Virus record (IMG/VR): IMGVR_UViG_3300033072_000033
Location: 7,788-71,787 of that record
Origin: a virus
Lineage: Duplodnaviria; Caudoviricetes
Reading direction: 5' to 3' (one strand)
DNA: 64,000 bases
Part shown: piece after piece, positions 35,551 to 62,815 of the stretch
Layout: each line of letters starts with the position of its first letter
Position numbering within the stretch: position 1 is the stretch's first letter
Made by a program: the position numbers and the translations under genes
The notes under the pieces: model-generated
What the model was told of the DNA's origin: nothing
What the model saw: the letters and a program-made list of their open reading frames with translations, nothing else
Database searches by the model: none

Positions 35551-37259
35551 TTTTCTTCCGCAAACTTAAATATAAGAATTTTTTGAGTACTGGTAATGTG
35601 TTCACTGAAATTCTATTGGATAAATCCCCTAGTACACTGATTATTGGAAAAAATGGTAGTGGTAAAAGTTCCATCCTTTGTTCGTTGTGCTTCGCATTAT
35701 TCAATAAGCCATTCCGCAATATTAATAAAGCTGGACTAATCAACTCTATCAATGGCAAAGATTGTGTTGTGGAACTCGAATTTGATGTTGATAATAAATC
35801 CTATAAGATCATTCGTGGCATCAAACCCAATATTTTTGAGATCTACTGTAATGGATCTCTAATCAATCAGGAAGCATCGGTAAAGGATTATCAGGAATAT
35901 CTGGAAAAATATATCCTAAAGATGAATTTTAAATCATTCACACAGATTGTTATTCTCGGATCTGCTTCGTTCGTCCCGTTCATGCAATTGTCTGCTGGGG
36001 ATCGTCGTGCTATTATCGAGGACTTACTTGACATCCAGATTTTCTCGACGATGAATTCTCTATTGAAGGAACGACTTTCTACTAACAAAGAAGCAACCAC
36101 AAGCAACAAATATCAGATCGAACTCACTTCCCAAAATTATCAGTTGCAGGAAAAACACATCAATGAACTAAAACAGAACAACGATGAGAAGATTGTCGAA
36201 TATGAAACTGAGATTCAAAACTACCTAAGAGATATTGGCTTAGTGAATATCAGTATTGAGAATTTCAGTAAGAAAGTTGAAGAACTCCAGAAATCCATCA
36301 CTGACAAGTCTATAGTTGAAGGTAAGATCAAGAAACTGAATCAACTCGAAACCCAGATTGAAACGAACATCTCTAATCTAAAGAAGGATATCCAGTTCTT
36401 CCAGAATAACGACACATGCCCCACTTGCCGTCAGAAGATTGATGAGGATAAGAGTCAAGATCAGATCAATACTAATCAAGCTAAGATCGCCGAAAGCTCT
36501 AAGGGTATTAAAGATATTGCTGATGTGATTGGGAAAGAGACGCAACGCCTTCAAGAGATTCATACAACACTAGATCAGATTCATAAGTGTCAGGTTAAGA
36601 TAGCCACTGATAATACTTCAGTCACTAATATGAATGGCTATATCACCAAACTCCAGAGACAGATTGGTGAACTTAAAAATACTAAACACAATCTTGATGC
36701 TGGGACTGAAACTTTGGATAAATTGAAAGTCAAATTAAATGAACTTGACGTGGAACATAAACGATTGATTGATGAGAAGTCTTATTATGATGCAGCCACA
36801 ATTCTTCTGAAAGATAGTGGGATTAAGACCAAAATCGTAAAGCAATATCTCCCGATCATCAATAAAGTCGTGAATAAGTATCTAACCGAAATGGACTTCT
36901 TTGTGAACTTTAATTTGGATGAATCGTTCAAGGAGACTATTAAATCAAGACACCGAGACGAATTCACATATGCGTCATTTAGTGAAGGTGAAAAGCAAAA
37001 GATTGATATTGCTCTGATGCTTACTTGGAGAACCGTGGCTAAATTGAAGAACTCCGTAAACACTAATCTACTAATTCTGGATGAAGTATTTGATAGTAGT
37101 TTAGATGCGAATAGTATTGAAAATCTTGTTAAGATTTTGAGTACATTGGAAGGCGTTAATTTGTTTGTGATTAGTCATCGCGGAGATATCCTTCAAGACA
37201 AGTTCAGATCGATGATTTCGTTCGAGAAACATAACAATTTTAGTAGGATCGCAAAATGA
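35547..37259 (+). CDS. gp46: Recombination ATPase gp46 (Rad50/SbcC-like)
   Basis: GKNGSGKS, CPTC hook, FSEGEK, LILDEVFDSSLD. Confidence 0.96.
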   Translation: MIFFRKLKYKNFLSTGNVFTEILLDKSPSTLIIGKNGSGKSSILCSLCFALFNKPFRNINKAGLINSINGKDCVVELEFDVDNKSYKIIRGIKPNIFEIYCNGSLINQEASVKDYQEYLEKYILKMNFKSFTQIVILGSASFVPFMQLSAGDRRAIIEDLLDIQIFSTMNSLLKERLSTNKEATTSNKYQIELTSQNYQLQEKHINELKQNNDEKIVEYETEIQNYLRDIGLVNISIENFSKKVEELQKSITDKSIVEGKIKKLNQLETQIETNISNLKKDIQFFQNNDTCPTCRQKIDEDKSQDQINTNQAKIAESSKGIKDIADVIGKETQRLQEIHTTLDQIHKCQVKIATDNTSVTNMNGYITKLQRQIGELKNTKHNLDAGTETLDKLKVKLNELDVEHKRLIDEKSYYDAATILLKDSGIKTKIVKQYLPIINKVVNKYLTEMDFFVNFNLDESFKETIKSRHRDEFTYASFSEGEKQKIDIALMLTWRTVAKLKNSVNTNLLILDEVFDSSLDANSIENLVKILSTLEGVNLFVISHRGDILQDKFRSMISFEKHNNFSRIAK

Positions 37260-37819
37260 ATAATGAAGATTTTTTAGTAATTGATACTGGCATTGGTCTG
37301 AAACAAGATGATAAGATTGAAGTGCTCCCTCTGTATGACGAGAACTACCATCTGCTTAAGGTTGCTATGCCAGAACATGATGTGCGAATGTTGCCTAATC
37401 CGGTGATGACTAAGTTTGCTTGTCGTCTCCAAAAAACTATGCAAGAATATAATGGTATCGGACTATCAGCCAATCAGTGTGGTGTCCAAGAGCGAATGTT
37501 TGTTATGGGTGATTTTGTCTGCATCAATCCCAAGATCGTAGGACATTCGGAATCAACTTTTAAGATGAAAGAGGGTTGTCTATCATTCCCAGGATTGTTT
37601 GTCACAGTTCCCCGATATTGTTCTGTTGATGTTGAGTTCTATGATATCAATGGACAATTGCAATCACACCACTTTGAAGGTGTTACTGCTCAATGCTTCC
37701 AACACGAACTGGATCATATGAATGGTGTAACTTTTGTGGATAATGTTGGTCCAGTGGCACTTCAAATGGCTCGTCAAAAGCAACAGAAATTGATCAAGAA
37801 AATTAAACGGAACGCTTGA
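37256..37819 (+). CDS. def: Peptide deformylase
   Basis: GIGLSANQ, EGCLS, QHELDH. Confidence 0.93.
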   Translation: MNNEDFLVIDTGIGLKQDDKIEVLPLYDENYHLLKVAMPEHDVRMLPNPVMTKFACRLQKTMQEYNGIGLSANQCGVQERMFVMGDFVCINPKIVGHSESTFKMKEGCLSFPGLFVTVPRYCSVDVEFYDINGQLQSHHFEGVTAQCFQHELDHMNGVTFVDNVGPVALQMARQKQQKLIKKIKRNA

Positions 37820-44562: not shown

Positions 44563-44913
44563 ATGAGTATGTCTATTGATGTTAAGCGTTTTGTTGACGC
44601 ATGTGATCAAGAACCATCACAAGCCAATGTTGATCTGTACAAAGAGCTTATTCGTGAAGAGTATGAAGAATTCCTTGAAGCATGTAATGAGAACGATGAA
44701 ATTGAACAGCTTGACGCCTGTATGGATATGATCTGGGTTATTCTAGGTTATTGTCACATGAAGAAGTATAAAGTCCAAGAAGCCTGGGATGAAGTTGCTG
44801 ATTCGAATCTCTCAAAGATTGACACTGCAACCGGTAAAGTCATCAAACGCGCCGATGGTAAAGTTCTCAAGCCAGCAAATTGGAAAGAACCAAATCTATC
44901 GAAGTTTATCTAA
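44563..44913 (+). CDS. MazG/PRA-PH-like nucleotide pyrophosphohydrolase
   Basis: LIREEYEEF, LDA..D.IWV..G, V..SN.SK, R.DGKVLKP. Confidence 0.8.
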   Translation: MSMSIDVKRFVDACDQEPSQANVDLYKELIREEYEEFLEACNENDEIEQLDACMDMIWVILGYCHMKKYKVQEAWDEVADSNLSKIDTATGKVIKRADGKVLKPANWKEPNLSKFI

Positions 44914-45512: not shown

Positions 45513-48062
45513 ATGTCCAAGTTCTACACGAGCGTTATCAGTGTAGGCAACAACATCCTTTATCGGGGTGTTAAAGACGGTCGGCGGGTGCGTATGAAAA
45601 TTGCGTATCAGCCGACTTTATATTTGCCTACTAAGAAACAAACTCAATTCAAGACTCTCCATGATGAACCACTAGAGCCTATGGTATTTGGTGGTATTAG
45701 AGATGCCCGTGATTTCGTCAAGAGATACGAAGATGTCGGCAATTTTAAGATCTATGGTAACTCTAGATTTGAGTATGCGTTTATTGCTGATGAATTTAAA
45801 GGTATGGTTGATTGGGATCAGGACCACGTTTCGGTTGCAGTAATTGACCTTGAAGTGGGTAGTTCCTCTGGAATGCCGGATGCATATAAGGCTGATAATC
45901 CGATTACAGCCATTTGTATTAAGTATATGAATGGCGAAACGCGGGTATATGGTTGTGGCGACTTCAATAATACTAAAGAAGGTGTTCGGTATATTAAATG
46001 TGCTGATGAATATGAACTCTGTAAAAAGTTTCTAGATGACTGGATTGAAGACTGTCCTGATGTTCTGTCGGGATGGAATATTAAGTTCTTTGATATTCCT
46101 TATCTGGTTAATCGGTTCACTAAGATTCTCGGAGAAGATGCCGCTAAGAATTTGTCCCCCTGGCGAATGATCCGAGAGCGTACAGTCAAGAGTACCTATG
46201 GAGAAAAGTTAGCATACGAACTCTGTGGTGTCGCTACGTTTGATTATATTGAACTGTATAAGGCATATGCTCCCGGTGGTAAATCTCAGGAATCATACCG
46301 ACTGGACAATATCGCCAACGTAGAACTTGGTGAACGCAAACTATCTTATGATGAATATGATAGCCTTCACGATCTATATGTACAAGATTATCAGAAATTC
46401 ATTGAATATAATATACAGGACGTTGAGCTTGTTATTAGACTTGAAGATAAACTGAAACTGATTGAACTGGGTTTGACTCTTGCGTATGACACTAAATCTA
46501 ATTTTGAGGACATCTTTGCCCAGACTCGGATGTGGGATGCGCTAATCTATAATGATTTGTTAGAGAAAAATATCATTGTGCCACCATCTCAGGTCAGCGA
46601 GAAGGATGGTCGCTTTGAAGGTGCGTTCGTTAAAGAGGTTCAAGTCGGTATGCATCACTGGGTTGCTAGTTATGATTTGGATTCGTTACACCCCCACATC
46701 ATGATGGGATCCAACATGTCACCAGAAACAGTGATTGATGTTGCCGATTACACTAAAGAGATGCGGGATATCGTTTCTCAAGGTGTTACTGTTGACAAGA
46801 TGTTGAATAAACAGATTGATACCTCTGTACTTGATGGATTGAAAGTAGCACTGACTCCCACTGGCAACTTCTTTAGAACAGATAAGCAAGGATTTCTTCC
46901 TGCAATTTTGGAGCGGCTTTACACAGATCGCAAGAAGTATAAGCGAATGATGTTGGACGCTAAGAAAGAGTTGGAGAAGGAATCAGACCCTATCAAGCGT
47001 CGAGATATTGAAAAACGAATTGCTCGATACAATAATATTCAGTTAGCGAAGAAGCTTAGCCTTAATTCGTGTTTTGGTATTACTGGTTCCCGATACTTCC
47101 GATTCTATGATCTGAGAATTGCTGAATCTGTTACTGTGTCAAGTCAGTTAGCGATTCGATGGGTTGCAAATGAGATCAATCGGTATTTGAATACTTTGCT
47201 GGATACGAAGGCTGATTATGTGATTGCTTCTGATACTGATTCGGTTTATGTTCGTCTTGGTGAATTGGTCGATAAAGTTTATGGCTCTGAAGTTGATAAG
47301 ATGCCGAAACAAAAGATCATTGACTTCATGGATAAGGTTAGTGAGGATAAGATTCAGCCATTGATCCAGAATACATATCAGGAATTGGCTATCTATACCC
47401 ATGCGTATGCTCAGAAGATGAATATGAAGCGCGAAGCCCTAGCCGATAAGGGGATTTGGACAGCTAAGAAGCGTTATATCCTAAATGTGTATAATAATGA
47501 GGGGGTTCAATATTCCGAACCAGATTTGAAAATTATGGGATTGCAGGTTATTCAATCCTCAACACCCCTCGTTGTCAGAGATCGAATGAGAGAAACTATT
47601 GAACTCATGATCAAAGGTACTGAAGCTGATGTCCAGGCATGTATCAAGAAGTTTAAGGATGAATTTAAGACACTACCACCCGAAGAAGTCTCATTCCCTC
47701 GTGGCTGTAACGGGTTGAAAGAGTATGCGGATTCGGTTACGTTATATCGAAAAGGAACCCCGATTCACGTCAAGGGCGCTATTCTTTATAACCACTACCT
47801 GAAGAAACAGAATCTCGACAATAAGTATCCGATCATCCAAGAAGGCGAGAAGTTAAAGTTTACATACTTAAAGAAACCAAATCCATTCCGCGATTCGGTC
47901 ATCTCATATCCGGGGCGACTACCAGAGGAATTCGGATTACACTCTTATGTTGACTATGACACTCAATTCCAAAAGACCTATCTGGATCCGATTAAAGGCA
48001 TCCTGGATTGTATCGGTTGGCAGCACGAAAAGGTTAATTCACTCAACGGATTTTTCGCATGA
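45513..48062 (+). CDS. gp43: Family B DNA polymerase gp43
   Basis: Exo I DLE, Exo II GWN..FFDIPY, Exo III YNIQD; pol motifs DLDSLHP, K..LNSCFG, SDTDS, KKRY. Confidence 0.96.
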   Translation: MSKFYTSVISVGNNILYRGVKDGRRVRMKIAYQPTLYLPTKKQTQFKTLHDEPLEPMVFGGIRDARDFVKRYEDVGNFKIYGNSRFEYAFIADEFKGMVDWDQDHVSVAVIDLEVGSSSGMPDAYKADNPITAICIKYMNGETRVYGCGDFNNTKEGVRYIKCADEYELCKKFLDDWIEDCPDVLSGWNIKFFDIPYLVNRFTKILGEDAAKNLSPWRMIRERTVKSTYGEKLAYELCGVATFDYIELYKAYAPGGKSQESYRLDNIANVELGERKLSYDEYDSLHDLYVQDYQKFIEYNIQDVELVIRLEDKLKLIELGLTLAYDTKSNFEDIFAQTRMWDALIYNDLLEKNIIVPPSQVSEKDGRFEGAFVKEVQVGMHHWVASYDLDSLHPHIMMGSNMSPETVIDVADYTKEMRDIVSQGVTVDKMLNKQIDTSVLDGLKVALTPTGNFFRTDKQGFLPAILERLYTDRKKYKRMMLDAKKELEKESDPIKRRDIEKRIARYNNIQLAKKLSLNSCFGITGSRYFRFYDLRIAESVTVSSQLAIRWVANEINRYLNTLLDTKADYVIASDTDSVYVRLGELVDKVYGSEVDKMPKQKIIDFMDKVSEDKIQPLIQNTYQELAIYTHAYAQKMNMKREALADKGIWTAKKRYILNVYNNEGVQYSEPDLKIMGLQVIQSSTPLVVRDRMRETIELMIKGTEADVQACIKKFKDEFKTLPPEEVSFPRGCNGLKEYADSVTLYRKGTPIHVKGAILYNHYLKKQNLDNKYPIIQEGEKLKFTYLKKPNPFRDSVISYPGRLPEEFGLHSYVDYDTQFQKTYLDPIKGILDCIGWQHEKVNSLNGFFA

Positions 48063-48700
48063 ACATTAGAATCATTAAAACTGGCATCGATGTCTCCAAG
48101 ATCAAAGAACAACTTGAACTCTATAAAGACGATTGGAATAGTCAACGTAAATTAGATCATACTGGAGAAATGAGTCATGCAGATCTTAACTCTATTGATC
48201 GATCTACCGAAATCCTAAGACAGCAACAAAAGGAAATGACCGGAGTTGAGTTCGTTGATATCGAACACGGAGAACATGCCAAACATCGAGTCGGTGTTGA
48301 CGTTCTTCAGTTGGTTATGGGTGGTATTACAAAAGAGGGCGAAGATTCTCGTAATACTGAAGTCTGTATCGTCACACCAGCATTTGAACACCACACAGCA
48401 ATTGTCGATTTTGTACGGCAGCATTTCCGGTCACTAGGTCGATGTGGATTTCTGGCATTGGGTGTTGGTGAGGAAGTACTACCGCATATTGACATCGGGG
48501 CTTATTATTTGAACAAGGATCGGTATCATTTATCGATTGCTGGCAGATATAAGTACACGGTTGATGGTGAAGAGGCTATTATTGAACCAGGAACATTCTT
48601 CTGGTTTGATAATAAGAAAATGCATAGCTCGGAAAACATCGGAGAAGAAACACGGGTAACATTCGTTTTTGATGTGACTAAATCCGAGATTAATCCGTAA
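48059..48700 (+). CDS. Aspartyl/asparaginyl beta-hydroxylase-like 2OG-Fe(II) oxygenase
   Basis: PHID, RYHLSI, WFDNKKMH..N..R..FVFD. Confidence 0.75.
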   Translation: MNIRIIKTGIDVSKIKEQLELYKDDWNSQRKLDHTGEMSHADLNSIDRSTEILRQQQKEMTGVEFVDIEHGEHAKHRVGVDVLQLVMGGITKEGEDSRNTEVCIVTPAFEHHTAIVDFVRQHFRSLGRCGFLALGVGEEVLPHIDIGAYYLNKDRYHLSIAGRYKYTVDGEEAIIEPGTFFWFDNKKMHSSENIGEETRVTFVFDVTKSEINP

Positions 48701-48771: not shown

Positions 48772-49827
48772 ATGGAAACACTAATGGATAAGATGCGTAA
48801 GTTATCCTTTAAAATTGATTATGAAACATATGATCCGAGTAAAATAGGTGAAAATGTAACTACGGATAAGAAATATAAGTTGATGATTAAGACCCATTGG
48901 GATACTGGGATTAATTATCTGTGTATCACGAAACGAAAAGATTATAGGCAATACAAAGGATCTGGTGTTCGGTGGAAGAAGTTATTGGAATCTCATCCCG
49001 GACCCGTGTGTACTTGGCTTATATTCTCGTCGGATGATATAGACGAGTTCAATCTCGTGTGTCAATATCATTCAGATTTTTATAATATCCCATTCAATGA
49101 AGACTTCGCCAATTTAGTTCCTGAATATGGTTATGAAGGTAATCAGGGGAATCTTCCTGCTTGGTGGCAATGTGCGTCAGAGGAAGATAAGCGAGTCGCA
49201 AAAGCTAAAATAAAGGTGACTCGTGAAAAAAATTGTTTAGAGAAGTATGGTGTGCATCATACTATGCATTTAGCCCTAGCTAAACTAAAAGAGAAATGTG
49301 CTGCGATGGGGTATGATCATGTGATGCGTATCCCAGAGGTTGCCGCAAAATGTAGAGCCGCAGGGAAAAAGACTCTCATGGAGCGTTATGGTGTTGAGCA
49401 TAATATGCATATTCCGGGGCTGAGTAAGCAAGTTGACGAATCCCGAAGACGCACTTTGAAAGAGATGTATGGTGTTGAATATATTCTACAGCTTGAAGGT
49501 ATGGCTGAACGAGTTAGGATTAAGCGAGAGGCTACATTAATGGAGAAGTATGGGGTTCCGAATATTTCTATGGTTCCTGGGGTTGCTGAAGCTCGTAGTG
49601 ATAAAATTAAAGCTGCATTGGCAAAGCGTGTTTATGAGAAGTGTCCGCACTGTGATTTTGAATCTAAAAACATAAAATTTCATGAACCATATTGCCCACA
49701 CAACCCAAATAGAAAAGAGCGAAAGACTGAAAAATGTGAGCACTGTGGAATAGAAACATCCCCATCAAATATAAAAAGATGGCATAATGACAACTGTAAA
49801 TTAAAAGGAAAACAAAATGGCGAATAA
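48772..49827 (+). mobile_element. Putative GIY-YIG-variant homing endonuclease with EKYGV repeats and Zn-finger tail
   Basis: YKLMIKTH..TG.NYL..T...Y.GSG..W; repeated LEKYGV/MERYGVEH; CPHC..H..C, CEHCG..H..NC. Confidence 0.65.
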
Positions 49828-50896: not shown

Positions 50897-51179
50897 GTAT
50901 AAGTTCACAGAATCGCCGTATGATGATGCAACATGGGTGGAAATTACATCGGGAGTCTATTCCGGTGTAGTTTTCTCTTATGGAATGGTTAGTCTAGATC
51001 AAGATTCGTACTTGCCCCAGTTGAAGTTTAACTATAACATCCTTCAATCCGGCAAACATACGATTGACTCCTTGACTAACGATGACGAATTTGTTACTAT
51101 AATGGGTGACATCCTAACTGAGATTATTATTGAAAATGAACCGACTAGAACTAAGCATCCTGAAGAGCCTTATCTATAA
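50859..51179 (+). CDS. Hypothetical protein between uvsX and gp41 (start uncertain)
   Basis: Y.GVVFSYG.V, LKFNY.I, F...MGDIL..II; position occupied by gp40 in T4, homology not evident. Confidence 0.55.
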   Translation: MIPNSWKKTPKIEYKFTESPYDDATWVEITSGVYSGVVFSYGMVSLDQDSYLPQLKFNYNILQSGKHTIDSLTNDDEFVTIMGDILTEIIIENEPTRTKHPEEPYL

Positions 51180-52482
51180 TGAAGAGTTTACAAGAAAAGT
51201 AATCCCCTTCATTGACGCAGCATATTTCTCAGATCAAACCGAGAGGAATGTCTACCAAGAAGTATCAGATTTCGTCAACAAGTACAAAGCCCTGCCAACA
51301 CATGAAGCACTGGTGATCAATTTCACAGAGAAGAAGAATTTATCCGATGAGCAAGTTCACGGGGCCATCAAGCTACTCAAAGAACTGGATGACAACAAAG
51401 ACGAACCAACACAGACAGAATGGCTTGTAGAACAGACCGAGAAGTTTTGTCAGGATCGGGCTATCTACAATGCCATCATGGAATCAGTTTCTATTCTTGA
51501 TGATACTAAGGGAACTCGTGCTAAAGGTGAAATTCCGCAACTACTGAGTGATGCCCTTGGTGTGTCGTTTGATCAGAATGTCGGGCATGATTACACTCAA
51601 GACTCAGAATCTCGTTATGACTTCTATCACCGAAAAGAAAGCCGGATTAAGACTGATCTGGATTTGCTCAACCGAATCACTAAGGATGGATTTCCTAAAA
51701 AGACGTTGAATATTATCTTGGCTGGGACAGGCGTTGGAAAGAGCATGATGATGTGTCACTTGGCGTCATCATGTATCAGTAATGGAAATAATGTTCTTTA
51801 TATCACCCTTGAACTTGCCGAGGAGGAGCTTGCAAAACGGATTGATGCAAATCTACTCAACCTGACTATGGATGAACTTCTAGTCATACCACGAGAAGAT
51901 TATGCTCGAAAGTTCAGTACCCTCAAGAATAAAACTCATGGAAAACTAATTATTAAAGAGTATCCGACTGCATCTGCTCATGCTGGTCACTTCAGAGCAT
52001 TGTTTCAGGAATTGAAGATTAAGAAGAACTTCACTCCTGATATTGTATTCATTGACTATCTGAATATCTGTGCATCATCCCGCACCAAAATGGGGTCGTC
52101 CGTTAATTCATACACATATATCAAATCTATTGCGGAGGAGTTACGTGGTCTTGCAGTTGAAGCAAATGTCCCTGTCGTCTCAGCAACTCAAACAACTCGC
52201 AGCGGATTTTGTTTGGATGTAAATACCACTGTTACATCAAAGCGAGGGGATATTAAGATATCTGATGTGTGTATTGGTGATGAGTTGAGTTCAGATACTG
52301 GATGGAATGTGGTGAAAACTGTATTCCCCCAGACTCGGAAAAAGATGTATCGTATCAAGACCGAAAGTGGTAAAGAAATTACAGCGTCAGAGGACCACCT
52401 TTTTCCAACCGAAACTGGAGAAAAAAATATTAAAGGTGGTTTAGGATTGCAAGATAGACTTTTTGTGGATGAGTTGGGATGA
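51136..52482 (+). CDS. gp41: Replicative helicase gp41, N-part ending in a 90 aa split-intein N fragment
   Basis: AGTGVGKS, DYLNI, KSIAEELRG, SATQTTRSGF followed by CLD. Confidence 0.94.
   Translation: MNRLELSILKSLIYNEEFTRKVIPFIDAAYFSDQTERNVYQEVSDFVNKYKALPTHEALVINFTEKKNLSDEQVHGAIKLLKELDDNKDEPTQTEWLVEQTEKFCQDRAIYNAIMESVSILDDTKGTRAKGEIPQLLSDALGVSFDQNVGHDYTQDSESRYDFYHRKESRIKTDLDLLNRITKDGFPKKTLNIILAGTGVGKSMMMCHLASSCISNGNNVLYITLELAEEELAKRIDANLLNLTMDELLVIPREDYARKFSTLKNKTHGKLIIKEYPTASAHAGHFRALFQELKIKKNFTPDIVFIDYLNICASSRTKMGSSVNSYTYIKSIAEELRGLAVEANVPVVSATQTTRSGFCLDVNTTVTSKRGDIKISDVCIGDELSSDTGWNVVKTVFPQTRKKMYRIKTESGKEITASEDHLFPTETGEKNIKGGLGLQDRLFVDELG
52210..52479 (+). mobile_element. Split intein N fragment (gp41-1-like)
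   Basis: CLDVNTTV (block A), ITASEDHLFPT.TGE.NI.GGL (block B). Confidence 0.92.
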
Positions 52483-52496
52483 TGATTGGATAATAT

Positions 52497-53246
52497 ATGG
52501 GATATATTTATAAAATTACTAATATAATCACTAATAAGATTTATGTTGGTAAAACAATTAAAACTATTGATGAGCGATTCAGAGAGCATATTAGCAACGG
52601 GAGAAAACTACAAGGAACTTCTTTGATAGCACATTCTCTTAGAGAGTATGGTACAATAAATCATAAAATTGAAGTTATAGAAGAGTGTTTTGATAATATT
52701 CTACAACGAGAGCAGTACTGGATTGACGAATTGAAAACTTTACATATTGGTTATAATGTGAAAAATGAGTATACTGAAGACTGTAGACGTTATTGGGGAT
52801 CTGAGGATATCGCAAAGAAAAATATATCAGGGGGTAAGGTATGGAATACTGGGATACCACCAAATAATGATGTTCGGAGAAAAATATCAGAAACCAAAAA
52901 AATCCGAGGCGCGTTAGGATTTTATGAAGGATCTTATGGTCATAAGCACTCTGATGAAACTAAACAGAAATTGTCGGAGATGGCTAAAAAACGTCCACCA
53001 CCAACGAGCGAAACTATTGAAAAGTTTCGACAACAATCATTAGACCGGATTTGTTATTATAGTATACAAGAGAAAAAACGTATATTTCTAAAACGCGGCT
53101 CTGTTGTGCCTGAAGGGTATGTTAAAGGTAAGGGGGCTTTTTGGGTCACTAAGGATGGTGAATCTTTGTGTGTAGATGTTTGGGACTGTGATCGTTATAT
53201 TAATGATGGATATATTAAAGGTAGGTGTGTATGTGGGAGAAAATAG
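52497..53246 (+). mobile_element. GIY-YIG homing endonuclease between the gp41 halves
   Basis: GYIYKITNIITNKIYVGKT, RFREH, REQYWI, GYN, HKHSDETKQKLSE (NUMOD3). Confidence 0.92.
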
Positions 53247-53662
53247 TAGATATTGTATGTGTTGGTGAGTGTGATGCTATCGATATTGAAGTTGATGGTA
53301 ATCATCTTTTTTATGCCAACAAAATCTTAACTCACAATTCGAATTCTGATGTTGGGCTTGAAGACACCTCCGAAAGTTTTGGTCTACCAGCAACAGCAGA
53401 CTTTATGATCGCCTTAATCAGTACCGAAGAACTCGAACAACTCAATCAACTCATGGTAAAACAGCTAAAGAATCGCTATGGAGACCCGAATCAATACAAG
53501 AAGTTTGTCATTGGTGTTGATCGATCCAAAATGCGATTATATGACGCTGAACAATCCGCACAAGTTGATATTGTTGATTCTGGACAACCTGATACACCAA
53601 TAAACAGTTTCGGTAATCGAGAGCGCAAATTCAGTTCTAAGTTCGATGGCGTTCGTGTATGA
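53231..53662 (+). CDS. gp41: gp41 C-part preceded by a 36 aa split-intein C fragment (53231-53338)
   Basis: IDIEVDGNHLFYANKILTHN/S then SDVGLEDTSESFGLPATADFM, KQLKNRY. Confidence 0.94.
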   Translation: MWEKIVDIVCVGECDAIDIEVDGNHLFYANKILTHNSNSDVGLEDTSESFGLPATADFMIALISTEELEQLNQLMVKQLKNRYGDPNQYKKFVIGVDRSKMRLYDAEQSAQVDIVDSGQPDTPINSFGNRERKFSSKFDGVRV

Positions 53663-55617: not shown

Positions 55618-56451
55618 ATGAAGGATGTGATAATTGGTTGTTCCACGAATTATACATGGGAACAACTAAAGTACTGGGTTAATTCCATCAATCAATCAGG
55701 ATTTGATGGCGATAAAGTCTTGATCCTGATGAACTGTGATAAAGATGCAGTCAAGAAAGTTACAGAAGCCGGATTTTCTGTTGTCGGATTCAATCAAGAC
55801 GCAGAAGGCAATCTAACATACCAAAGTCAATTGATGGTGCATGTGGAGCGATTCCTGCATATCTACAATGTGCTTCGTAGTAATGAGTATCGATATGTGA
55901 TTACGACTGATGTGAAGGATGTTGTATTTCAGCATGATCCAATCAAAGGCATCAAGAATCAACTCGGAGAGCGTCAGAATCTAATCTTTGCTTCTGAGAG
56001 TATCCGATATAAAGATGAGCCTTGGGGAAACCAGAACCTACTTGATACGTTCGGTCCATACTTCCACGAGCAATTCAAAGATAACGAAATCTTTAATGTG
56101 GGTGTACTTGCTGGTCGTGGTTTCGCTGTTCGTGATCTGTGCTGTAATATCTTTCAAGCAGCAGTGAATCGAATTCCTATCTGTGATCAATCCTATTTCA
56201 ACTTCCTAATTTCACAAGAACCATATAAGTCTACTGCACGATATTGTAAGTCAGAAGATGGGTGGGCTTGTCAATTGGGTACTACTGCGGATCCTTCTAA
56301 GATTGATTATTTCCGGCCATTTCTTATGGAACCATCACCTAAAATGGTTGATGATAAAGTGGTGACATCAACCGGAAAAGAGTTCACGATTGTCCACCAA
56401 TATGATCGTTGCCCTGAGTGGCGTACTATTATTGAGAAGAAATATGGCTAA
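55618..56451 (+). CDS. Putative GT-A glycosyltransferase-like protein
   Basis: TTDVKDVVFQ, IFNVGVLAG, DQSYFN, IVHQYDR. Confidence 0.6.
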   Translation: MKDVIIGCSTNYTWEQLKYWVNSINQSGFDGDKVLILMNCDKDAVKKVTEAGFSVVGFNQDAEGNLTYQSQLMVHVERFLHIYNVLRSNEYRYVITTDVKDVVFQHDPIKGIKNQLGERQNLIFASESIRYKDEPWGNQNLLDTFGPYFHEQFKDNEIFNVGVLAGRGFAVRDLCCNIFQAAVNRIPICDQSYFNFLISQEPYKSTARYCKSEDGWACQLGTTADPSKIDYFRPFLMEPSPKMVDDKVVTSTGKEFTIVHQYDRCPEWRTIIEKKYG

Positions 56452-57397
56452 AATTGTTTATGTTGTTCATCGCTACGCTCCATATCCCGGTGGCTCTGAG
56501 AATTATGTACGTGATATGGCCGAAGAAACACTTTATCGTGGTCATGAAGTATCTGTATTCGCCGGGGAACATCAAGGCGATCTAAATGGCGTTCATGTGA
56601 CTAGTGATCCTTCTGTGTTCTTGGATGCTGATCTAGTAGTCGTTCATGGTGGTGATGTGGGCTGGCAGGATAACATTCTAATGCAATGCCAGAAGATCAA
56701 CGCACCTACAATATTCATGTTGATCATTCCGTCTGAGTCTCCTGTATATCAATTCGCCCGTAACCATGTCGCGTATATCGGATGTTCTACAAATGAAGAC
56801 TGGAACTATGTAACTTATCATTGCCTTCGTGATAAAGCGATTCGGATTCGTCATGGTATTGATCCTATGATTTCTACAGGTCAATTAGGATTCCGCGAGA
56901 AGTATGATATCAAGACTAAGTATATGTTCTTGTCTTGTGGTGGATACTGGCATAATAAACGAATGCAAGAACTCGTAGACATCTTCAATCAAGTCGGTAG
57001 GGATGATATTACTCTGGTGACAACGGGATATGATAATCGTTTTGGTATCAAGCCCGAAGATTCTAAGTATGTCAAGAATTTACTTCTGGATGATCGAGAT
57101 GATGTAATGTCCGCAATCCGTGAGGCTGATCTATATGTGATGCACTCTAATCGTGAAGGTTTTGGGTTGGTTCTATTAGAGGCGATGCTGAATAAAACTC
57201 CGTGGGCTGCAACGAATATGGCTGGCGCACGATTAATGAAAGAATTCGGATTTGTCTATGATACTGATGACGAACTTCTTAATTACATGAAGAACTTTGA
57301 GTCAGTATCCGAGAACAAGATTGAAGACGCCTATGATTATGTGACATCAAACCATATGATACAAAACACCGTTGATGATATTTTAAAGAAACTATGA
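56444..57397 (+). CDS. GT-B (GT4-like) glycosyltransferase
   Basis: YPGGSE..V, ADLYVMHS..EGFGLVLLEAM; ATG 56444 preferred. Confidence 0.85.
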   Translation: MAKIVYVVHRYAPYPGGSENYVRDMAEETLYRGHEVSVFAGEHQGDLNGVHVTSDPSVFLDADLVVVHGGDVGWQDNILMQCQKINAPTIFMLIIPSESPVYQFARNHVAYIGCSTNEDWNYVTYHCLRDKAIRIRHGIDPMISTGQLGFREKYDIKTKYMFLSCGGYWHNKRMQELVDIFNQVGRDDITLVTTGYDNRFGIKPEDSKYVKNLLLDDRDDVMSAIREADLYVMHSNREGFGLVLLEAMLNKTPWAATNMAGARLMKEFGFVYDTDDELLNYMKNFESVSENKIEDAYDYVTSNHMIQNTVDDILKKL

Positions 57398-58023
57398 AGA
57401 TTACATTTGGAATTACGACTGACTATTCAAACCCGACACAACTTGAAGCAGTAACAGATTCAATCCATGATCTGAATATACCCAATTATGAAATCCTGAT
57501 AATTGGCAGTAAGTACGACATCTTTGCAAATAATACTCTACATATTAAGTTTGACGAGACAGTAAAGCCTGGATGGACTACTCGCAAAAAGAACATTCTA
57601 TGCCAAACAGCACAATACGAAAATATTGTTCTGATGCATGATTATTACCGCTTTGATCATGATTGGTATGTTAATATGCGAAAGTTCTCTGAAGATGTGC
57701 CTTGGGATATTTGCTCGTGCCAACAGCTAATGATCAACGGCAAGAGACATTTCACTGACTGGGTAACTTGGGATGATCCGATCTTTCCTCGATATTCAGC
57801 CCTGCCTTATGATGAATGGACAAGAGCACCATATATGTACATCTCAGGTGGATTCTTTATGGTTAAGAAACAAGTAGCCTTAGATAATCCATTCAATGAA
57901 GATCTAGTACATGGTCAAGCAGAGGATGTGGAATGGTCTCTAAGAGTCAGAGATAAGTATAGAATCGTTTGTAATGGAGCCGCTATAACCCGGCATTTGA
58001 AAGAGCATAGAGATGCAAAATAA
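57394..58023 (+). CDS. GT2-like glycosyltransferase
   Basis: ITFGITT, YEILII, KKN.L...A.YENIVLMHDY, ISGGFF, EDVEWS. Confidence 0.7.
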   Translation: MKITFGITTDYSNPTQLEAVTDSIHDLNIPNYEILIIGSKYDIFANNTLHIKFDETVKPGWTTRKKNILCQTAQYENIVLMHDYYRFDHDWYVNMRKFSEDVPWDICSCQQLMINGKRHFTDWVTWDDPIFPRYSALPYDEWTRAPYMYISGGFFMVKKQVALDNPFNEDLVHGQAEDVEWSLRVRDKYRIVCNGAAITRHLKEHRDAK

Positions 58024-59398
58024 TTATTTGTGTGTTTTTGATTTAGATGGTGTGTTGATTGATTCACGAGAACTTCACTATGATGCTCTCAATGAAGCAC
58101 TGCGCAAGGTTGGTGAACAATATATCATAACCCGCGAAGAACACCTGTCTAAGTATGATGGTCTTAATACCACCAAGAAACTAAAGATGTTGACTGAGGA
58201 TAAAGGTCTCCCAGTTCAAGTATATGATCAAGTGTGGAATGATAAACAGAAAGCCACCTTTGAGTTAATCAGAACCTGCCCCCAAAATTCATCGGCTCGT
58301 TATATCGTAGAACAACTAAAGCTACGTGGATGGAAAGTTGCAGTGGCTTCTAATAGTATCCGAGAAACTGTTCGGGTCGCTCTGGACGCACTCGGTATCC
58401 TTGGCATGATTGATTATTATGTCAGCAATGAAGACGTAAAGCATCCGAAGCCATTTCCAGAGATGTACTGGAAGTGTATGACAGCCTTGAATACACTGCC
58501 TAAGAATACGATCATTGTTGAAGATAGTCATATTGGACGCGAAGGTGCTATGAATTCTGGTGCGCACTTGTATCCGGTTAAAGACGCCTATGAATTAAAC
58601 GGTAAGAAGTTCATGGAGATGATCGATGAATTTGTCGCCCAACATAATAAGAAAAATATCCCTTGGAGAAATAAGAAGATGAATGTGTTGATCCCTATGG
58701 CTGGTGCTGGTAGTCGGTTTGCGAGTGCTGGTTATACATTTCCAAAGCCGCTGATTGAAGTTAATGGAAAGCCGATGATTGATGTAGTGGTGAATAATCT
58801 CAATGTTGACGCCCACTTCATTTTCCTAGTACAAAAAGAGCACTACGAGAAATACAACCTGAAGCAACTCCTGAACCTCATCGCCCCAGGTTGTGATATC
58901 ATTCAAGTTGATGGATTGACAGAAGGTGCTGCTTGTACTACACTATTGGCTAAGGATCTGATCAATAACGACGAACCTTTGATGATGGCTAATTCGGATC
59001 AATTTGTTGAATGGAACTCAAACGAATGTCTGTATGCGTTCTCTGCCGATAATATTGATGGTGGTATTGTTACATTCGAAGCAACACATCCGAAGTGGAG
59101 TTTCGCTAAGGTTGGTGAAGATGGCTTTGTGTCTGAAGTGGCTGAGAAGAATCCGATTTCAAACATTGCGACTGCTGGGATTTACTATTGGGCACACGGA
59201 TCTGACTATGTTAAGTATGCAGAACAGATGATTGAGAAGGATATCCGAACTAATGGGGAGTTCTATGTTGCCCCAGTGTTTAATGAAGCAATTGGTGATG
59301 GTAAGAAAATCCGAGTCAAGATGATCGAGAAAATGTGGGGACTGGGTATTCCCTCTGATTTGGATTATTTTATGAACCATTATAAAGGTACAGTATGA
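58013..59398 (+). CDS. HAD phosphatase fused to a sugar/polyol-phosphate nucleotidyltransferase
   Basis: FDLDGVLID, KP.PE.Y, IVEDS (HAD); LIPMAGAGSRF..PKPLI, ANSDQ, GEFYVAP (NTP transferase). Confidence 0.88.
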   Translation: MQNNYLCVFDLDGVLIDSRELHYDALNEALRKVGEQYIITREEHLSKYDGLNTTKKLKMLTEDKGLPVQVYDQVWNDKQKATFELIRTCPQNSSARYIVEQLKLRGWKVAVASNSIRETVRVALDALGILGMIDYYVSNEDVKHPKPFPEMYWKCMTALNTLPKNTIIVEDSHIGREGAMNSGAHLYPVKDAYELNGKKFMEMIDEFVAQHNKKNIPWRNKKMNVLIPMAGAGSRFASAGYTFPKPLIEVNGKPMIDVVVNNLNVDAHFIFLVQKEHYEKYNLKQLLNLIAPGCDIIQVDGLTEGAACTTLLAKDLINNDEPLMMANSDQFVEWNSNECLYAFSADNIDGGIVTFEATHPKWSFAKVGEDGFVSEVAEKNPISNIATAGIYYWAHGSDYVKYAEQMIEKDIRTNGEFYVAPVFNEAIGDGKKIRVKMIEKMWGLGIPSDLDYFMNHYKGTV

Positions 59399-60114
59399 GA
59401 GTAGCAGTAATTCTGACGGGGCATCTTCGTTGTTGGAAAGATGTGTTCCCTAACTTTAAAGAGAAGGTAATTGATCGATTCAACCCTGATATCTTCATTC
59501 ACACCTGGAATGAAGAGGGTTGGTGGATTCCAGGTGATAAGCAAAACGAAAAGGGGTATTTTGAAGATACTCCATTAATTGATAAAGACGAAATCATTAC
59601 AACATATCAACCAAAAGGTCTTGCTATTGAAGATTGGAATGACTATAATCACCTTTTTGAAATGCGTGGTGAGTTATTTGAGAACTATGCACATCGACCA
59701 AAGAATATTCTATCGATGTTTCATAAGATCAATCGCGGTGTTGATATGATGGAGGACTATGTTTCTCAGACCGGTGAGTTTTACGATCTGGTGATTCGAA
59801 TGCGTCCTGATATGATTTTCAATGAAGATCTACCAGAGTTCAATCCACACAAGTTCTATACCATTGCCCACCGAAATCATCTGGGACAAGGTACAGGTGA
59901 TCAAATTCAAGTGGGTAATATGATGAGTATGATCATGTTCTCAAAGGCGTCGTGTTATATGACTCACCTTTATGCGGCAACAGGTCTTTTGTGTCCTCAT
60001 GTAATTTCACTGCAATGGATTCAAGATCTGGGTTTGGATTGGCAGGAATTCGCAATTAACAAAACTTTAATGCATACACCAAAAGGTCCGTATGTCGAAA
60101 TGGATAAACAATGA
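59395..60114 (+). CDS. Hypothetical glycan-biosynthesis protein
   Basis: VAVILTGHLR, DIFIHTW, YDLVIRMRPD motifs recalled from polysaccharide loci. Confidence 0.55.
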   Translation: MRVAVILTGHLRCWKDVFPNFKEKVIDRFNPDIFIHTWNEEGWWIPGDKQNEKGYFEDTPLIDKDEIITTYQPKGLAIEDWNDYNHLFEMRGELFENYAHRPKNILSMFHKINRGVDMMEDYVSQTGEFYDLVIRMRPDMIFNEDLPEFNPHKFYTIAHRNHLGQGTGDQIQVGNMMSMIMFSKASCYMTHLYAATGLLCPHVISLQWIQDLGLDWQEFAINKTLMHTPKGPYVEMDKQ

Positions 60115-60824
60115 CTGTAACTTATAAAATTATTGAAGGCGAACCAAGTGATTGGGATAAAATTACTGATCTCAAAGATGGCCCTGTTCAATACGAAATG
60201 ACTGCAACCAACAACATCAAAATGGTTCAGCATCCATATCCATATTCAATCAAGGAAGCAGAATTTAATTATCTGACAGGCTTGATTACTGAACATAAAC
60301 TTCAGCGTGGGTATGAATGCGCGACTGCTTTTGGTATTAGTTCTCTTGCTATCGGTCTAGGCTTCAAGAATACTGGTGGTAAATGTGTCACTATGGATGC
60401 TTATATTGAAGAAAAATGTAAAGATCCAGGCGCTTATGAGAAGTTTGAACGAGAAGTCTATGAACAAGCTGATGGTCTGAAATCGGTTAAGTATTTGATT
60501 GAAAAATTCGGTCTTCAAGAGAATCTATTCCCAGAGATCGGTTGGAGTCCTACTGATACTGAAGCCGCTGTTCGTAAGCACATTCAAGAACCATTAGATT
60601 TTGCGTTCATCGATGCTGGACACTTTCCTGAGCAAATGATTAAGGATATCGATGCAGTTCTCCCTTTGCTGGGGGATAAGTATATTCTGGCGTTCCATGA
60701 TGTATATCCGTGGAGTTTCAGCGACGCAGTACACGAGCACCTATTCAACAAAACCGGCAAGCGAGTAGAGATTAAAGTCCCACACCCCGCTGGTGAAAAT
60801 CTTGGAGTTTTGTTCAATATATGA
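60111..60824 (+). CDS. Class I SAM methyltransferase (Methyltransf_24-like)
   Basis: YECATAFG.SS, DFAFIDAGH, LAFHD. Confidence 0.75.
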   Translation: MTVTYKIIEGEPSDWDKITDLKDGPVQYEMTATNNIKMVQHPYPYSIKEAEFNYLTGLITEHKLQRGYECATAFGISSLAIGLGFKNTGGKCVTMDAYIEEKCKDPGAYEKFEREVYEQADGLKSVKYLIEKFGLQENLFPEIGWSPTDTEAAVRKHIQEPLDFAFIDAGHFPEQMIKDIDAVLPLLGDKYILAFHDVYPWSFSDAVHEHLFNKTGKRVEIKVPHPAGENLGVLFNI

Positions 60825-61282
60825 TGTTAATTTCTCATCGTGGTAATCTCAATGGGCCACAACCAGAACTTGAAAATAGTCCTAGATATATTCAAGCTGC
60901 GTTAGATGCTGGATATTCCGTTGAGGTTGATTTATGGGTTATAGACGATATTCCGTACTTGGGGCATGATAAATCTCAATATCCGGTCTATATGGAATGG
61001 CTCAAAGAACGCCAGACAAAGCTCTGGATCCATTGTAAGAATCGTGCAGCATTGGAGTTTTGTCTGGATAATAAACTCCATTGTTTCTATCATGACAAAG
61101 ATGACTATACCATGACCAATTGTGGTTATGTTTGGGCATTTCCTGGTCAACCAAAGGCGGGACCATTCACTATTATGGTTCTTCCAGAGTGGTATAATTC
61201 ACCCAGCGAAATCAAAGAATTGGATTGTTTCGGTATCTGCTCTGATTATGTAGAACTTATAAAACACCTAAATAAACCATAA
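60821..61282 (+). CDS. GDPD/PI-PLC-like phosphodiesterase domain protein
   Basis: ISHRGN, VEVDLW, YLGHD, WIHCKN, GICSDY. Confidence 0.75.
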   Translation: MMLISHRGNLNGPQPELENSPRYIQAALDAGYSVEVDLWVIDDIPYLGHDKSQYPVYMEWLKERQTKLWIHCKNRAALEFCLDNKLHCFYHDKDDYTMTNCGYVWAFPGQPKAGPFTIMVLPEWYNSPSEIKELDCFGICSDYVELIKHLNKP

Positions 61283-61306
61283 ACAATTACTGCTGTAGAG
61301 GCGGAC

Positions 61307-62815
61307 ATGAAATTTAAAGCATTTAACACCCAAGATCGAACATCTATTGATAGTTTGTTTGAGTCTTTCCTTACTGAAGGCGTCCATGATAAGGGCATCT
61401 TCAAAGCAGTATTTCTATCTGGTGGACCCGGTTCTGGTAAAGATTATGTACTAGACAACACGCTACAGGGTCATGGTCTAACAGAAGTCAATCTTGATAA
61501 ATCCCAAGAATTCCTCTCTGCTAAAAACACAGTATCTGAAGAAGTTAAAGCTAAGAACGTCTCCGAACTTCGTCAAAAACTAGCAATCTCTGGTAGAAAC
61601 GGTTTAATCGTTAATGGTACTGGCGAAGATGCTGAGAAAATCGCCAAGATCAAAGCCGGTCTAGAAGAAATCGGTTATGATACCATGATGGTTTTCGTGG
61701 TGACTGATGATGAAGTATCTCGTCAACGTAATATTGAACGAGGTCAGAAGGGTGGTCGTACTGTCCCAGAAGATTCTCGTAAAAAGAAATGGGATGCTGT
61801 TACTAATACTCGCCCTCAATTAGCAGAACTCTTTGGTGAGAACTATATTGAGTTTGATAATTCCATTGATCTACGAAATGCGACCCCAGATATCGTTAAG
61901 CAGAAGAAAGATGAACTCGCAGAACTTTCGGATAAGATCGGTGAATTTGTTGCGAATCCTCCAGAGAATGAAATCGCTCAAGAATGGATCGCGGCACAAC
62001 TCAATAAGCGCACCAAAGTATCCAAGAATGGCTCAGATCTAACTGCGCCAGAAGGATCCGAGGCACACGAAGCTGCTGGTAAACTCGGACTTGATTACTA
62101 TGGTTCTGGAAAATACGGTAAGAATGGTAACGTAACTCATCATTCAGTTCATGGTAAGTTAGTAGAACCCAAGAAAGAAAAAGTAAAAGAATCAATTGAT
62201 CAGGATTTCAGTACATTCTTATCTGAAGCAGTTACTGTTGCAATTACTGGTGATACTGCCGAAGAAGCCATTAATGCTATTCGTATGTTGACTGGTGGAT
62301 CTGATGAGGTTCAAGACCAAAGCACCATGTCAAATTCTAATGCACGAACACTATTACAACTTAAAGCACATTCAAAGATCCCCACGGCCAACATTCCAGA
62401 GCCGATTTGGGGTTCATCCAATACTCAAGAAAAGGTAGAAAACAATGCTGAATACAATTATCAACTGGGTGAAGAGCCTGTTCAAAACAACACCGGTAGA
62501 ACCATGCTCTCCGAGTCCAGCGGAAGCGGTTGTGGATATGGAAACGCTGCCAAAGCAAAAAAGACAATATCACAAGCCAAAAGCCAACTCAAGCAAAAAA
62601 TCAACGAAATCGACCAAGGCACCGAAGTAGGAATTGCGATGTCTGGTGGTGGTGAAAATGCTACCAGAGGAAGCCTAAGTATTCGTGCAAAGAAGCGACC
62701 ATTTGATGAGATGCAAGGCGATGAAACCACAGCATCCATTGGTGATCGCAAAGAAGATGAACTACTCAAACAAGGAATTTCACTAAGTTCGTTTAAGAAG
62801 AGAAATTATCAATGA
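61307..62815 (+). CDS. P-loop kinase (zeta-toxin/AAA_33-like) with low-complexity extensions; probable head-internal protein
   Basis: AVFLSGGPGSGKD, LIVNGTG, S.QRN..R...GGRTVP, FDNS. Confidence 0.7.
   Translation: MKFKAFNTQDRTSIDSLFESFLTEGVHDKGIFKAVFLSGGPGSGKDYVLDNTLQGHGLTEVNLDKSQEFLSAKNTVSEEVKAKNVSELRQKLAISGRNGLIVNGTGEDAEKIAKIKAGLEEIGYDTMMVFVVTDDEVSRQRNIERGQKGGRTVPEDSRKKKWDAVTNTRPQLAELFGENYIEFDNSIDLRNATPDIVKQKKDELAELSDKIGEFVANPPENEIAQEWIAAQLNKRTKVSKNGSDLTAPEGSEAHEAAGKLGLDYYGSGKYGKNGNVTHHSVHGKLVEPKKEKVKESIDQDFSTFLSEAVTVAITGDTAEEAINAIRMLTGGSDEVQDQSTMSNSNARTLLQLKAHSKIPTANIPEPIWGSSNTQEKVENNAEYNYQLGEEPVQNNTGRTMLSESSGSGCGYGNAAKAKKTISQAKSQLKQKINEIDQGTEVGIAMSGGGENATRGSLSIRAKKRPFDEMQGDETTASIGDRKEDELLKQGISLSSFKKRNYQ

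Follow-up and report, generated by a model that had tools for sequence, protein, structure and literature searches.

The window analysed here, a stretch of 64,000 nucleotides corresponding to positions 7,788-71,787 of the 71.8 kb IMG/VR virus record IMGVR_UViG_3300033072_000033 (record completeness estimate 40%), contains the gene for a gp43-type family B replicative DNA polymerase, here named P0001, in which the tyrosine of the sugar steric gate is replaced by histidine, together with a block of co-varying residues in the active site. P0001 is rather probably the functional replicative gp43 of this phage, endowed with a rare alternative nucleotide pocket that would be epistatically locked and in which the checking of the sugar and of the minor groove would be re-tuned.

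A co-varying block in the active site

Alignment of P0001 to RB69 gp43 by HMMER makes F368, H393, C520, F521, S526, S543 and S544 the equivalents of RB69 Y391, Y416, L566, Y567, N572, F589 and G590, respectively. A previous sequence-only reading of this DNA had described Y391F, Y416H, Y567F, G590S and N572S as one co-adapted remodelling of the nascent base-pair pocket, and all five substitutions are found where it had placed them. Their distribution was examined in the 120 best database relatives over residues 330-600, which comprise 10 His-type and 110 Tyr-type protein clusters. H393, C520, F521 and S544 occur jointly in the 10 His-type clusters (P0001-P0010) and in 0/110 of the other close relatives, and the same holds for E538 (10/10 vs 0/110); conversely, F368 and S526 are found in 120/120. 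By this comparison Y391F and N572S characterise the phage group as a whole and are no part of the remodelling, so that the proposed co-adaptation stands, in the sense of constant co-occurrence, for Y416H, Y567F and G590S, joined by C520, and lapses for the other two changes.

When the 10 His-type proteins were compared column by column with 35 Tyr-type relatives and two cyanophage outgroups, 17 diagnostic positions emerged: H393, M402, a two-residue insertion at 443-444, T450, L515, C520, F521, T524, I536, E538, S539, V542, S544, A552, I570 and V580. All of them fall within residues 393-580 and none elsewhere in the 849 residues, and 7/17 are invariant across the Tyr-type and cyanophage outgroup proteins. 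The set is thus larger than the one first noticed by at least ten co-varying positions (M402, T450, L515, C520, T524, I536, E538, S539, V542, A552, I570 and V580).

A more distant set of 150 gp43 representatives, with 38-50% identity and one member per 50% cluster, was also considered. The steric gate is Tyr in 110/110 close and 150/150 distant relatives. In the distant set Phe is present at 521 in 6 proteins, Ser at 544 in 3 and Cys at 520 in 16, each singly and with a Tyr gate; Glu at 538 is the majority state, and the position of RB69 Y391 is occupied by Tyr in 61, Phe in 35 and Ile in 35. These counts therefore leave the gate His as the sole change that appears unprecedented among the sampled gp43 relatives, the remaining ones being, as far as the sampled proteins indicate, individually tolerated with a Tyr gate.

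His-type sequences are rare. All the 80 IMG/VR loci retrieved with P0001 as query are Tyr-type, a scan of IMG/VR with the degenerate DNA motif [YF]DLDSLHPHxM returned no His-type sequence besides the record of P0001, and the corresponding scan of JGI metagenomes returned a single His-type contig of 2.7 kb; no His-type fragments were found among 120 short matches. An apparent cluster of gene starts at M397 proved to be a contig-edge artefact.

Fold, motifs and residue assignments

Fold, motifs and context place P0001 in the T4-type gp43 family; two residue hallmarks of this family are missing from it, the Tyr of motif A and that of motif B. The protein matches both DNA_pol_B (PF00136) and DNA_pol_B_exo1 (PF03104) in Pfam, and its alignment to RB69 gp43 (1clq) covers residues 1-847 (HMMER E=7e-129). 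The AlphaFold2 model, computed with an alignment of 52 relatives, has a predicted local distance difference test score (pLDDT) of 90.5 and a predicted template-modelling score (pTM) of 0.83, and it superposes on RB69 gp43 structures in Foldseek with template-modelling scores of 0.86-0.91. The gene lies in a T4-type replication module, with the gp45 clamp, the gp44/62 loader and RegA upstream and UvsX and the gp41 helicase downstream.

The catalytic aspartates and the exonuclease motifs, which the sequence-only reading had judged intact, occupy invariant columns of the alignment; ExoII (N189...D194) and ExoIII (Y299...D303) are present and invariant in addition to the ExoI residues listed in Table 1. 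Motif A retains D388, S391, L392 and P394, and the gate Tyr of DxxSLYPS is replaced by His393. Motif B (KxxxNSxYG) keeps K514, N518, S519 and G522, with Phe521 in place of Tyr; the codons of C520-F521, within NSCFG, are TGT TTT (47070-47075), that of S526 lies at 47088-47090, and those of S543-S544 are TCA AGT (47139-47144). Motif C (D574-T575-D576-S577) and the KKRY motif (K652-K653-R654-Y655) are intact, and T541 and T575 are kept.

Table 1. Features of the polymerase gene and of its surroundings (positions in the window)
Feature	Position	Strand	Remarks
gp43-type family B replicative DNA polymerase (P0001), 849 aa	45513..48062	+	single open reading frame; Pfam, RB69 gp43 homology and AlphaFold2 model
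ExoI, D112-x-E114	45846..45854	+	intact; invariant alignment columns
F368 (TTT) = RB69 Y391	46614..46616	+	universal in the 120 nearest relatives; outside the special block
His-type active-site block, aa 393-580	46689..47252	+	motif A, fingers, motif B, following helix and motif C; all 17 diagnostic residues
H393 (CAC), steric-gate position = RB69 Y416	46689..46691	+	in DLDSLHP; HMMER alignment
Motif B region	47055..47090	+	L515 (RB69 L561), N518 retained, C520 (L566), F521 (Y567), T524 (L570), S526 (N572, group-wide)
Helix after motif B	47118..47144	+	I536, E538, S539, T541 (RB69 T587, retained), V542, S543, S544 (RB69 G590)
Motif C, D574-T575-D576	47232..47240	+	intact; invariant alignment columns
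PF18909 dATP/dGTP diphosphohydrolase (MazZ-like), 135 aa	39818-40225		directly upstream of gp45
MazG-type gene	44563-44913		
Homing-endonuclease-like open reading frame	48772..49827	+	phrog_3339, DUF7487; 0.7 kb downstream of the polymerase

Several known polymerases can be set beside P0001. Compared with RB69 and T4 gp43 it shares the domain order, the exonuclease motifs, the catalytic Asp residues, the equivalents of K560, N564, T587 and T622, the KKRY motif and the replication neighbourhood (gp45, gp44/62, RegA, UvsX and gp41); it differs in being only about 30% identical and about 50 residues shorter, and in carrying Y416 to His, Y567 to Phe, G590 to Ser, L566 to Cys and further pocket-adjacent changes. 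The Tyr-type gp43 proteins of the same group (such as those of the 161 kb IMG/VR record G001 and of loci L001-L080) are 62-70% identical to P0001, and the nearest named phages are cyanomyoviruses such as S-H38 and S-SSM5, at 47% identity. Both agree with P0001 in length, gene neighbourhood, Y391F, N572S and the accessory genes around the polymerase. Their DLxSLYPH, NSAYG and (A/S)G pair correspond to DLDSLHPH, NSCFG and SS in P0001.

Authenticity and age of the block

Codon comparison agrees with the earlier remark that Y416H, Y567F and G590S are each a single nucleotide away from the canonical codon, a circumstance that had raised the concern of read errors and that would fit a sequencing or assembly artefact. 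The His-type genes derive from JGI, ENA and Logan assemblies, and a JGI fragment extending no further than motif A (L095) is His-type as well, so that identical residues recur in 10 clusters and a fragment of independent projects, with differing synonymous codons: His is CAC or CAT (CAT in three His-type genes other than that of P0001), Phe is TTT or TTC, S544 is AGT or AGC, S539 is TCT, AGT or TCA, and L515 is CTT, CTC or TTG. An artefact is excluded, and the concern is dismissed with it. A decaying pseudogene is contradicted by the unbroken frame of 849 codons, by the presence of all the catalytic residues and by the confident model; taken together, artefact and decay have a vanishingly small probability.

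Protein divergence among His-type members is 17-37%, and the entire gene is saturated at third codon positions. This saturation, together with the synonymous variation at the diagnostic sites, indicates that the His-type block is old and held by purifying selection. A nucleotide-level trace of recent block transfer was looked for and none was seen, the third positions being saturated.

Probable mosaic history of the gene

In the whole-protein tree the His-type sequences fall in two well-supported separate clades: clade A, formed by P0001, P0002, P0003, P0008 and P0009 with the Tyr-type P0113 nested inside or beside it, and clade B, formed by P0010 and P0004-P0007, within another Tyr-type group. 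When only residues 385-590 are used, the ten His-type proteins form one clade, with a support of 99.9 in the Shimodaira-Hasegawa-like approximate likelihood ratio test (SH-aLRT). Conversely, the remaining 645 columns reject His-type monophyly, with a log-likelihood difference of 276 and p=1.5e-63 in the approximately unbiased (AU) test, and at least 4 changes of type are needed. The question whether the changes mark a clade, raised by the sequence-only reading, thus has a divided answer: Y416H, Y567F and G590S are always together and define one clade on the block, while Y391F is group-wide and the flanks split the carriers. Neighbouring genes track the flanks, the UvsX of the window being 65-66% identical to UvsX encoded beside Tyr-type polymerases and 49% identical to that of clade B.

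Since the diagnostic columns had been picked after the fact, the tests were repeated with these columns removed. Without the 17 columns the block still groups P0001-P0003 with P0004-P0007 (support 99), the tree uniting all His-type proteins is not rejected (p=0.79), and the flank-supported triplet of P0001, P0002 and P0113 is rejected (p=0.033). In the comparison of P0113 with clade A, block identity minus flank identity is -9 to -10, against a mean of +7.5 (standard deviation (SD) 5.6) over 903 pairs; these values, outliers by about 3 SD, are among the most negative. GC content shows no pattern with respect to the His or Tyr type.

Transfer of the block by recombination is most likely, and would explain the data better than the parallel acquisition of about 15 identical residues. 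Whichever its origin, the set behaves, in the proteins compared, as an indivisible unit on unrelated backbones.

A probable rebuild of the nucleotide pocket

In RB69 gp43 the sugar of the incoming deoxynucleoside triphosphate sits above the ring of Y416, whose backbone amide bonds the 3'-OH (PMC3799440). The pocket of residue 415 is surrounded by Y416, G590 and L412, and the cavity beneath this residue, in the L415/Y416 area, is lined by G590, F589, A593, M681 and L412 (PMC3799440); ordered waters link the side chains of Y416, Y567 and T622 to the minor-groove acceptors (PMC3799440). The same structural work bears out the earlier proposal that the changed residues share one pocket, with Y416, G590 and L412 around one cavity and Y416 and Y567 in one water network (PMC3799440). 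The block of P0001 removes both Tyr hydroxyls of the minor-groove network, places a smaller ring under the sugar and adds Ser and Cys alongside; it also alters the equivalents of L561 and L570 and the helix bearing T587. By analogy with RB69, the block would amount to a coherent rebuild of one pocket.

The steric-gate Tyr is viewed as invariable throughout family B, phage enzymes and human Pol delta and epsilon included. It has been reported as essential in yeast Pol delta and epsilon, and in Pol epsilon the finger Asn equivalent to N518 of P0001 (N564 in RB69) is a second ribonucleotide sensor (PMC10639073). This sensor Asn is retained in P0001. The statement that His gates exist in other polymerases is borne out for PolD, where the gate is H931, and as a proposal for family C; in PolD a clash with the 2'-OH and a bond to the 3'-OH have been proposed (PMC7708050). 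The resemblance to P0001 is a functional analogy, in which a His imidazole under the sugar may block the 2'-OH and bond the 3'-OH (PMC7708050); unlike P0001, whose fold is RB69-like, PolD and family C enzymes have unrelated folds (two-barrel and Pol-beta-like palm, respectively) and carry the His on other structural elements. Parallels by position are engineered family B mutants (RB69 Y416A, Y567A and L415x; Tgo/KOD Y409 variants), in which sugar or base selectivity was altered in the laboratory at the same positions. These mutants have one or few substitutions and usually a cost in fitness or fidelity, whereas the His type is a natural block of about 17 residues conserved in replicating phages. 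Among the papers searched, none described a Tyr-to-His gate, whether natural or engineered, in family B.

In the reading that we favour, the block would have arisen once within this T4-like group, at least some of whose relatives are from freshwater metagenomes (one related contig is so labelled), and would then have been carried between lineages by homologous recombination; split-block recombinants would fail to survive because of the interdependence of the residues. In the pocket, the H393 imidazole would still stack under the deoxyribose and block the 2'-OH, as in PolD, with the help of the N518 sensor, while S544 would fill and hydrogen-bond the space freed by the smaller ring; the loss of the Y416 and Y567 hydroxyls would rewire the waters through which the minor groove is checked. 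The outcome would be a functional DNA polymerase, neither RNA-tolerant nor broken, whose selectivity towards sugars, analogues or mismatches is shifted, and we infer that ribonucleotides are still excluded, with changed margins.

Several observations weigh against this interpretation. With 10 protein clusters and one fragment, the sample in which no split block occurs is small. Without the diagnostic columns the block disfavours the flank clade of clade A plus P0113 weakly (AU p=0.09), which gives modest support to a shared history, and cross-clade identity between His-type blocks, again without these columns, is within the range of Tyr-type pairs of equal flank divergence; the block identity is no outlier, which tempers the claim of recombination. 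Parallel evolution of the block is less likely than its transfer. Moreover, the contact between H393 and S544 is one that we infer from the RB69 literature, and the contig of P0001 covers only about 40% of the genome.

A further and more specific proposal, unlikely though deserving some weight, is that the block acts as a different substrate filter, which would confer tolerance of ribo-, arabino- or 3'-modified nucleotides or resistance to a chain-terminating or pocket-binding analogue produced by the host or by a competitor; the resulting advantage would drive its spread by recombination between unrelated T4-like phages. If this were true, P0001 would be the first family B replicase from nature whose sugar gate has been re-engineered, and a ready scaffold for polymerase engineering; a change in the sensitivity to analogues or in the use of ribonucleotides would suggest that phage replication in natural waters is under a selective pressure so far overlooked.

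The block might instead be the product of nearly neutral compensated drift, in which a background with F521 and S544 permitted the change of Tyr to His with enzyme behaviour unaltered, and slightly worse intermediates hold the block together. The tolerance of F521, S544 and C520, each with a Tyr gate, in distant relatives, the competence of His as a steric gate in other polymerase families, and the fact that no linked gene and no ecological signal were found are all consistent with drift. This explanation has to account, however, for seven substitutions at otherwise invariant positions, clustered in one pocket, and for a gate Tyr that is unchanged in 260 other sampled relatives; in addition, the presence of the block on unrelated backbones implies transfer with retention or parallel gain, both of which suggest an advantage. 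Drift is therefore regarded as rather unlikely.

A natural replicase that dispenses with the gate Tyr and reveals the companion changes constitutes a ready experiment on sugar selection and minor-groove checking, and the block offers about 17 naturally validated substitutions for the engineering of polymerases that accept modified nucleotides. The intact block on unrelated backbones would also be a clear case of epistasis limiting recombination within a core phage gene.

Accessory genes and the modified-precursor hypothesis

Another explanation, advanced in general form by the sequence-only reading, is the adaptation of the pocket to a non-canonical DNA precursor made by the phage, such as 2-aminoadenine or another nucleotide modified at the minor groove or at the sugar. 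The altered residues are indeed those that touch the sugar and the minor-groove edge, a PF18909 dATP/dGTP diphosphohydrolase and a second pyrophosphohydrolase of the MazG type are encoded near the polymerase (Table 1), and one His-type genome contains a deoxynucleoside monophosphate (dNMP) kinase. The PF18909 gene, a metallophosphoesterase gene (43157) and the cupin gene that follows gp43 (48059) are missing from the 161 kb Tyr-type G001, which had suggested that they are specific for the His type; this candidate link was rejected, as the three genes are also found beside Tyr-type polymerases at 8, 15 and 47 other loci, respectively. Homologues of PF18909 are scattered over both polymerase types, with none found in the His-type region of P0010, and the dNMP kinase of clade B is also present in four Tyr-type loci.

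For clade B the gene content was surveyed over about 51 kb of a 172 kb genome contig, scaffold_93 of ENA ERZ19037015, and over an 11 kb contig. No gene is common to both His-type lineages and missing from Tyr-type loci in the approximately 50-70 kb examined; the PF18909, metallophosphoesterase, cupin and dNMP kinase genes and the sugar-activation island described below all occur also beside Tyr-type polymerases. PurZ (PF00709) was not found in the contig of P0001 (about 40% of the genome) or in a 96%-complete Tyr-type relative, and His-type genomes encode an ordinary dCMP deaminase. To our knowledge, polymerases accept dZTP, the 2-aminoadenine deoxynucleoside triphosphate, without pocket changes. 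With its accessory genes shared by Tyr-type polymerases and with no linked gene in the regions surveyed, the modified-nucleotide explanation gains no support from them and is considered improbable.

The island at 55618-62815 encodes a GT4 glycosyltransferase, a HAD-nucleotidyltransferase fusion, a methyltransferase and a zeta-toxin-like P-loop kinase. As a candidate DNA-modification cluster linked to the polymerase the island was discarded: G001, which is Tyr-type, retains it at 44-75% identity, so that it is a group trait. The cupin gene (48059-48700), which is Asp/Arg-hydroxylase-like, lies directly after gp43 and is also present in the 47 Tyr-type loci mentioned above.

Homing endonucleases around and within gp43

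Endonucleases and introns are known in gene 43 of T4 relatives (PMC2993671), and the sequence of the block could represent an immunity allele against a homing endonuclease: an endonuclease cutting the DNA that codes for conserved motifs of Tyr-type gp43 would have selected amino-acid changes in its target, compensation would have followed, and double-strand-break repair would have spread the tract. The genome is rich in homing endonucleases, endonuclease genes adjoin the His-type polymerases in the window and in L083, and an HNH endonuclease splits the gp43 of relatives at about residue 423/425, within the block; gene conversion would also account for a tract with both borders inside the gene. 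Since the gp43 of these relatives is split inside the block, double-strand breaks are plausible there and may be how tracts move.

Conversely, 2/4 His-type contexts (L081 and L098) are without an endonuclease within 2.5 kb, while 5/80 Tyr-type loci have one, and the endonucleases next to His-type genes are related neither to one another nor to the endonuclease that divides gp43. No homologue of the endonuclease-like open reading frame downstream of P0001 was matched in the loci of the other His-type polymerases. The diagnostic changes extend over 190 codons, far beyond one recognition site, the His-type sequence is undistinctive around the known split site, and co-inheritance does not extend to the C-terminal third, which separates the block from the downstream endonuclease; moreover, synonymous sites are saturated, so that no recent sweep is seen. 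Escape from an endonuclease thus has little probability as the origin of the block.

The split genes are those of the Tyr-type loci L102 (3904-7359) and L103 (1804-5259), where gp43 is divided at about residue 423/425 into proteins of 429 and 452 aa. A 177-aa HNH-like gene and an 82-aa open reading frame lie between the two halves, which end and begin, respectively, in non-homologous charged helices.

Other features of the genomic setting

No second PolB or PolA was found in the contig of P0001 (about 40% of the genome), and in the 96%-complete Tyr-type relative, which has no PolA and no second PolB, the homologue of P0001 is the sole polymerase gene.

The gp41 helicase of the window consists of two open reading frames (51130-52482 and 53225-53662) that flank a GIY-YIG endonuclease gene (52497-53246); in the relatives L081, L083 and L098 gp41 is one unbroken gene. 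DruA/DUF4338-like genes are located directly after gp41 in five loci (L081:15890-16996, L083:16188-17303, L098:6055-7158, L101:5865-7178 and L102:12056-13165). A gene of this kind also follows the peptide deformylase gene in one genome, and none was detected in the window, where peptide deformylase is encoded at 37256-37819, after gp46/47 (SbcCD-like). Two group members unrelated to each other encode a 475-aa DUF2828/DUF7788 protein upstream of gp43 (L081:7077-8507 and L102:43-1470). Finally, the distant gp43 relatives P0122, P0136, P0233 and P0234 are about 1180-1190 aa long and contain, close to query residue 188 or 580, inserts of about 340 residues that may be inteins.

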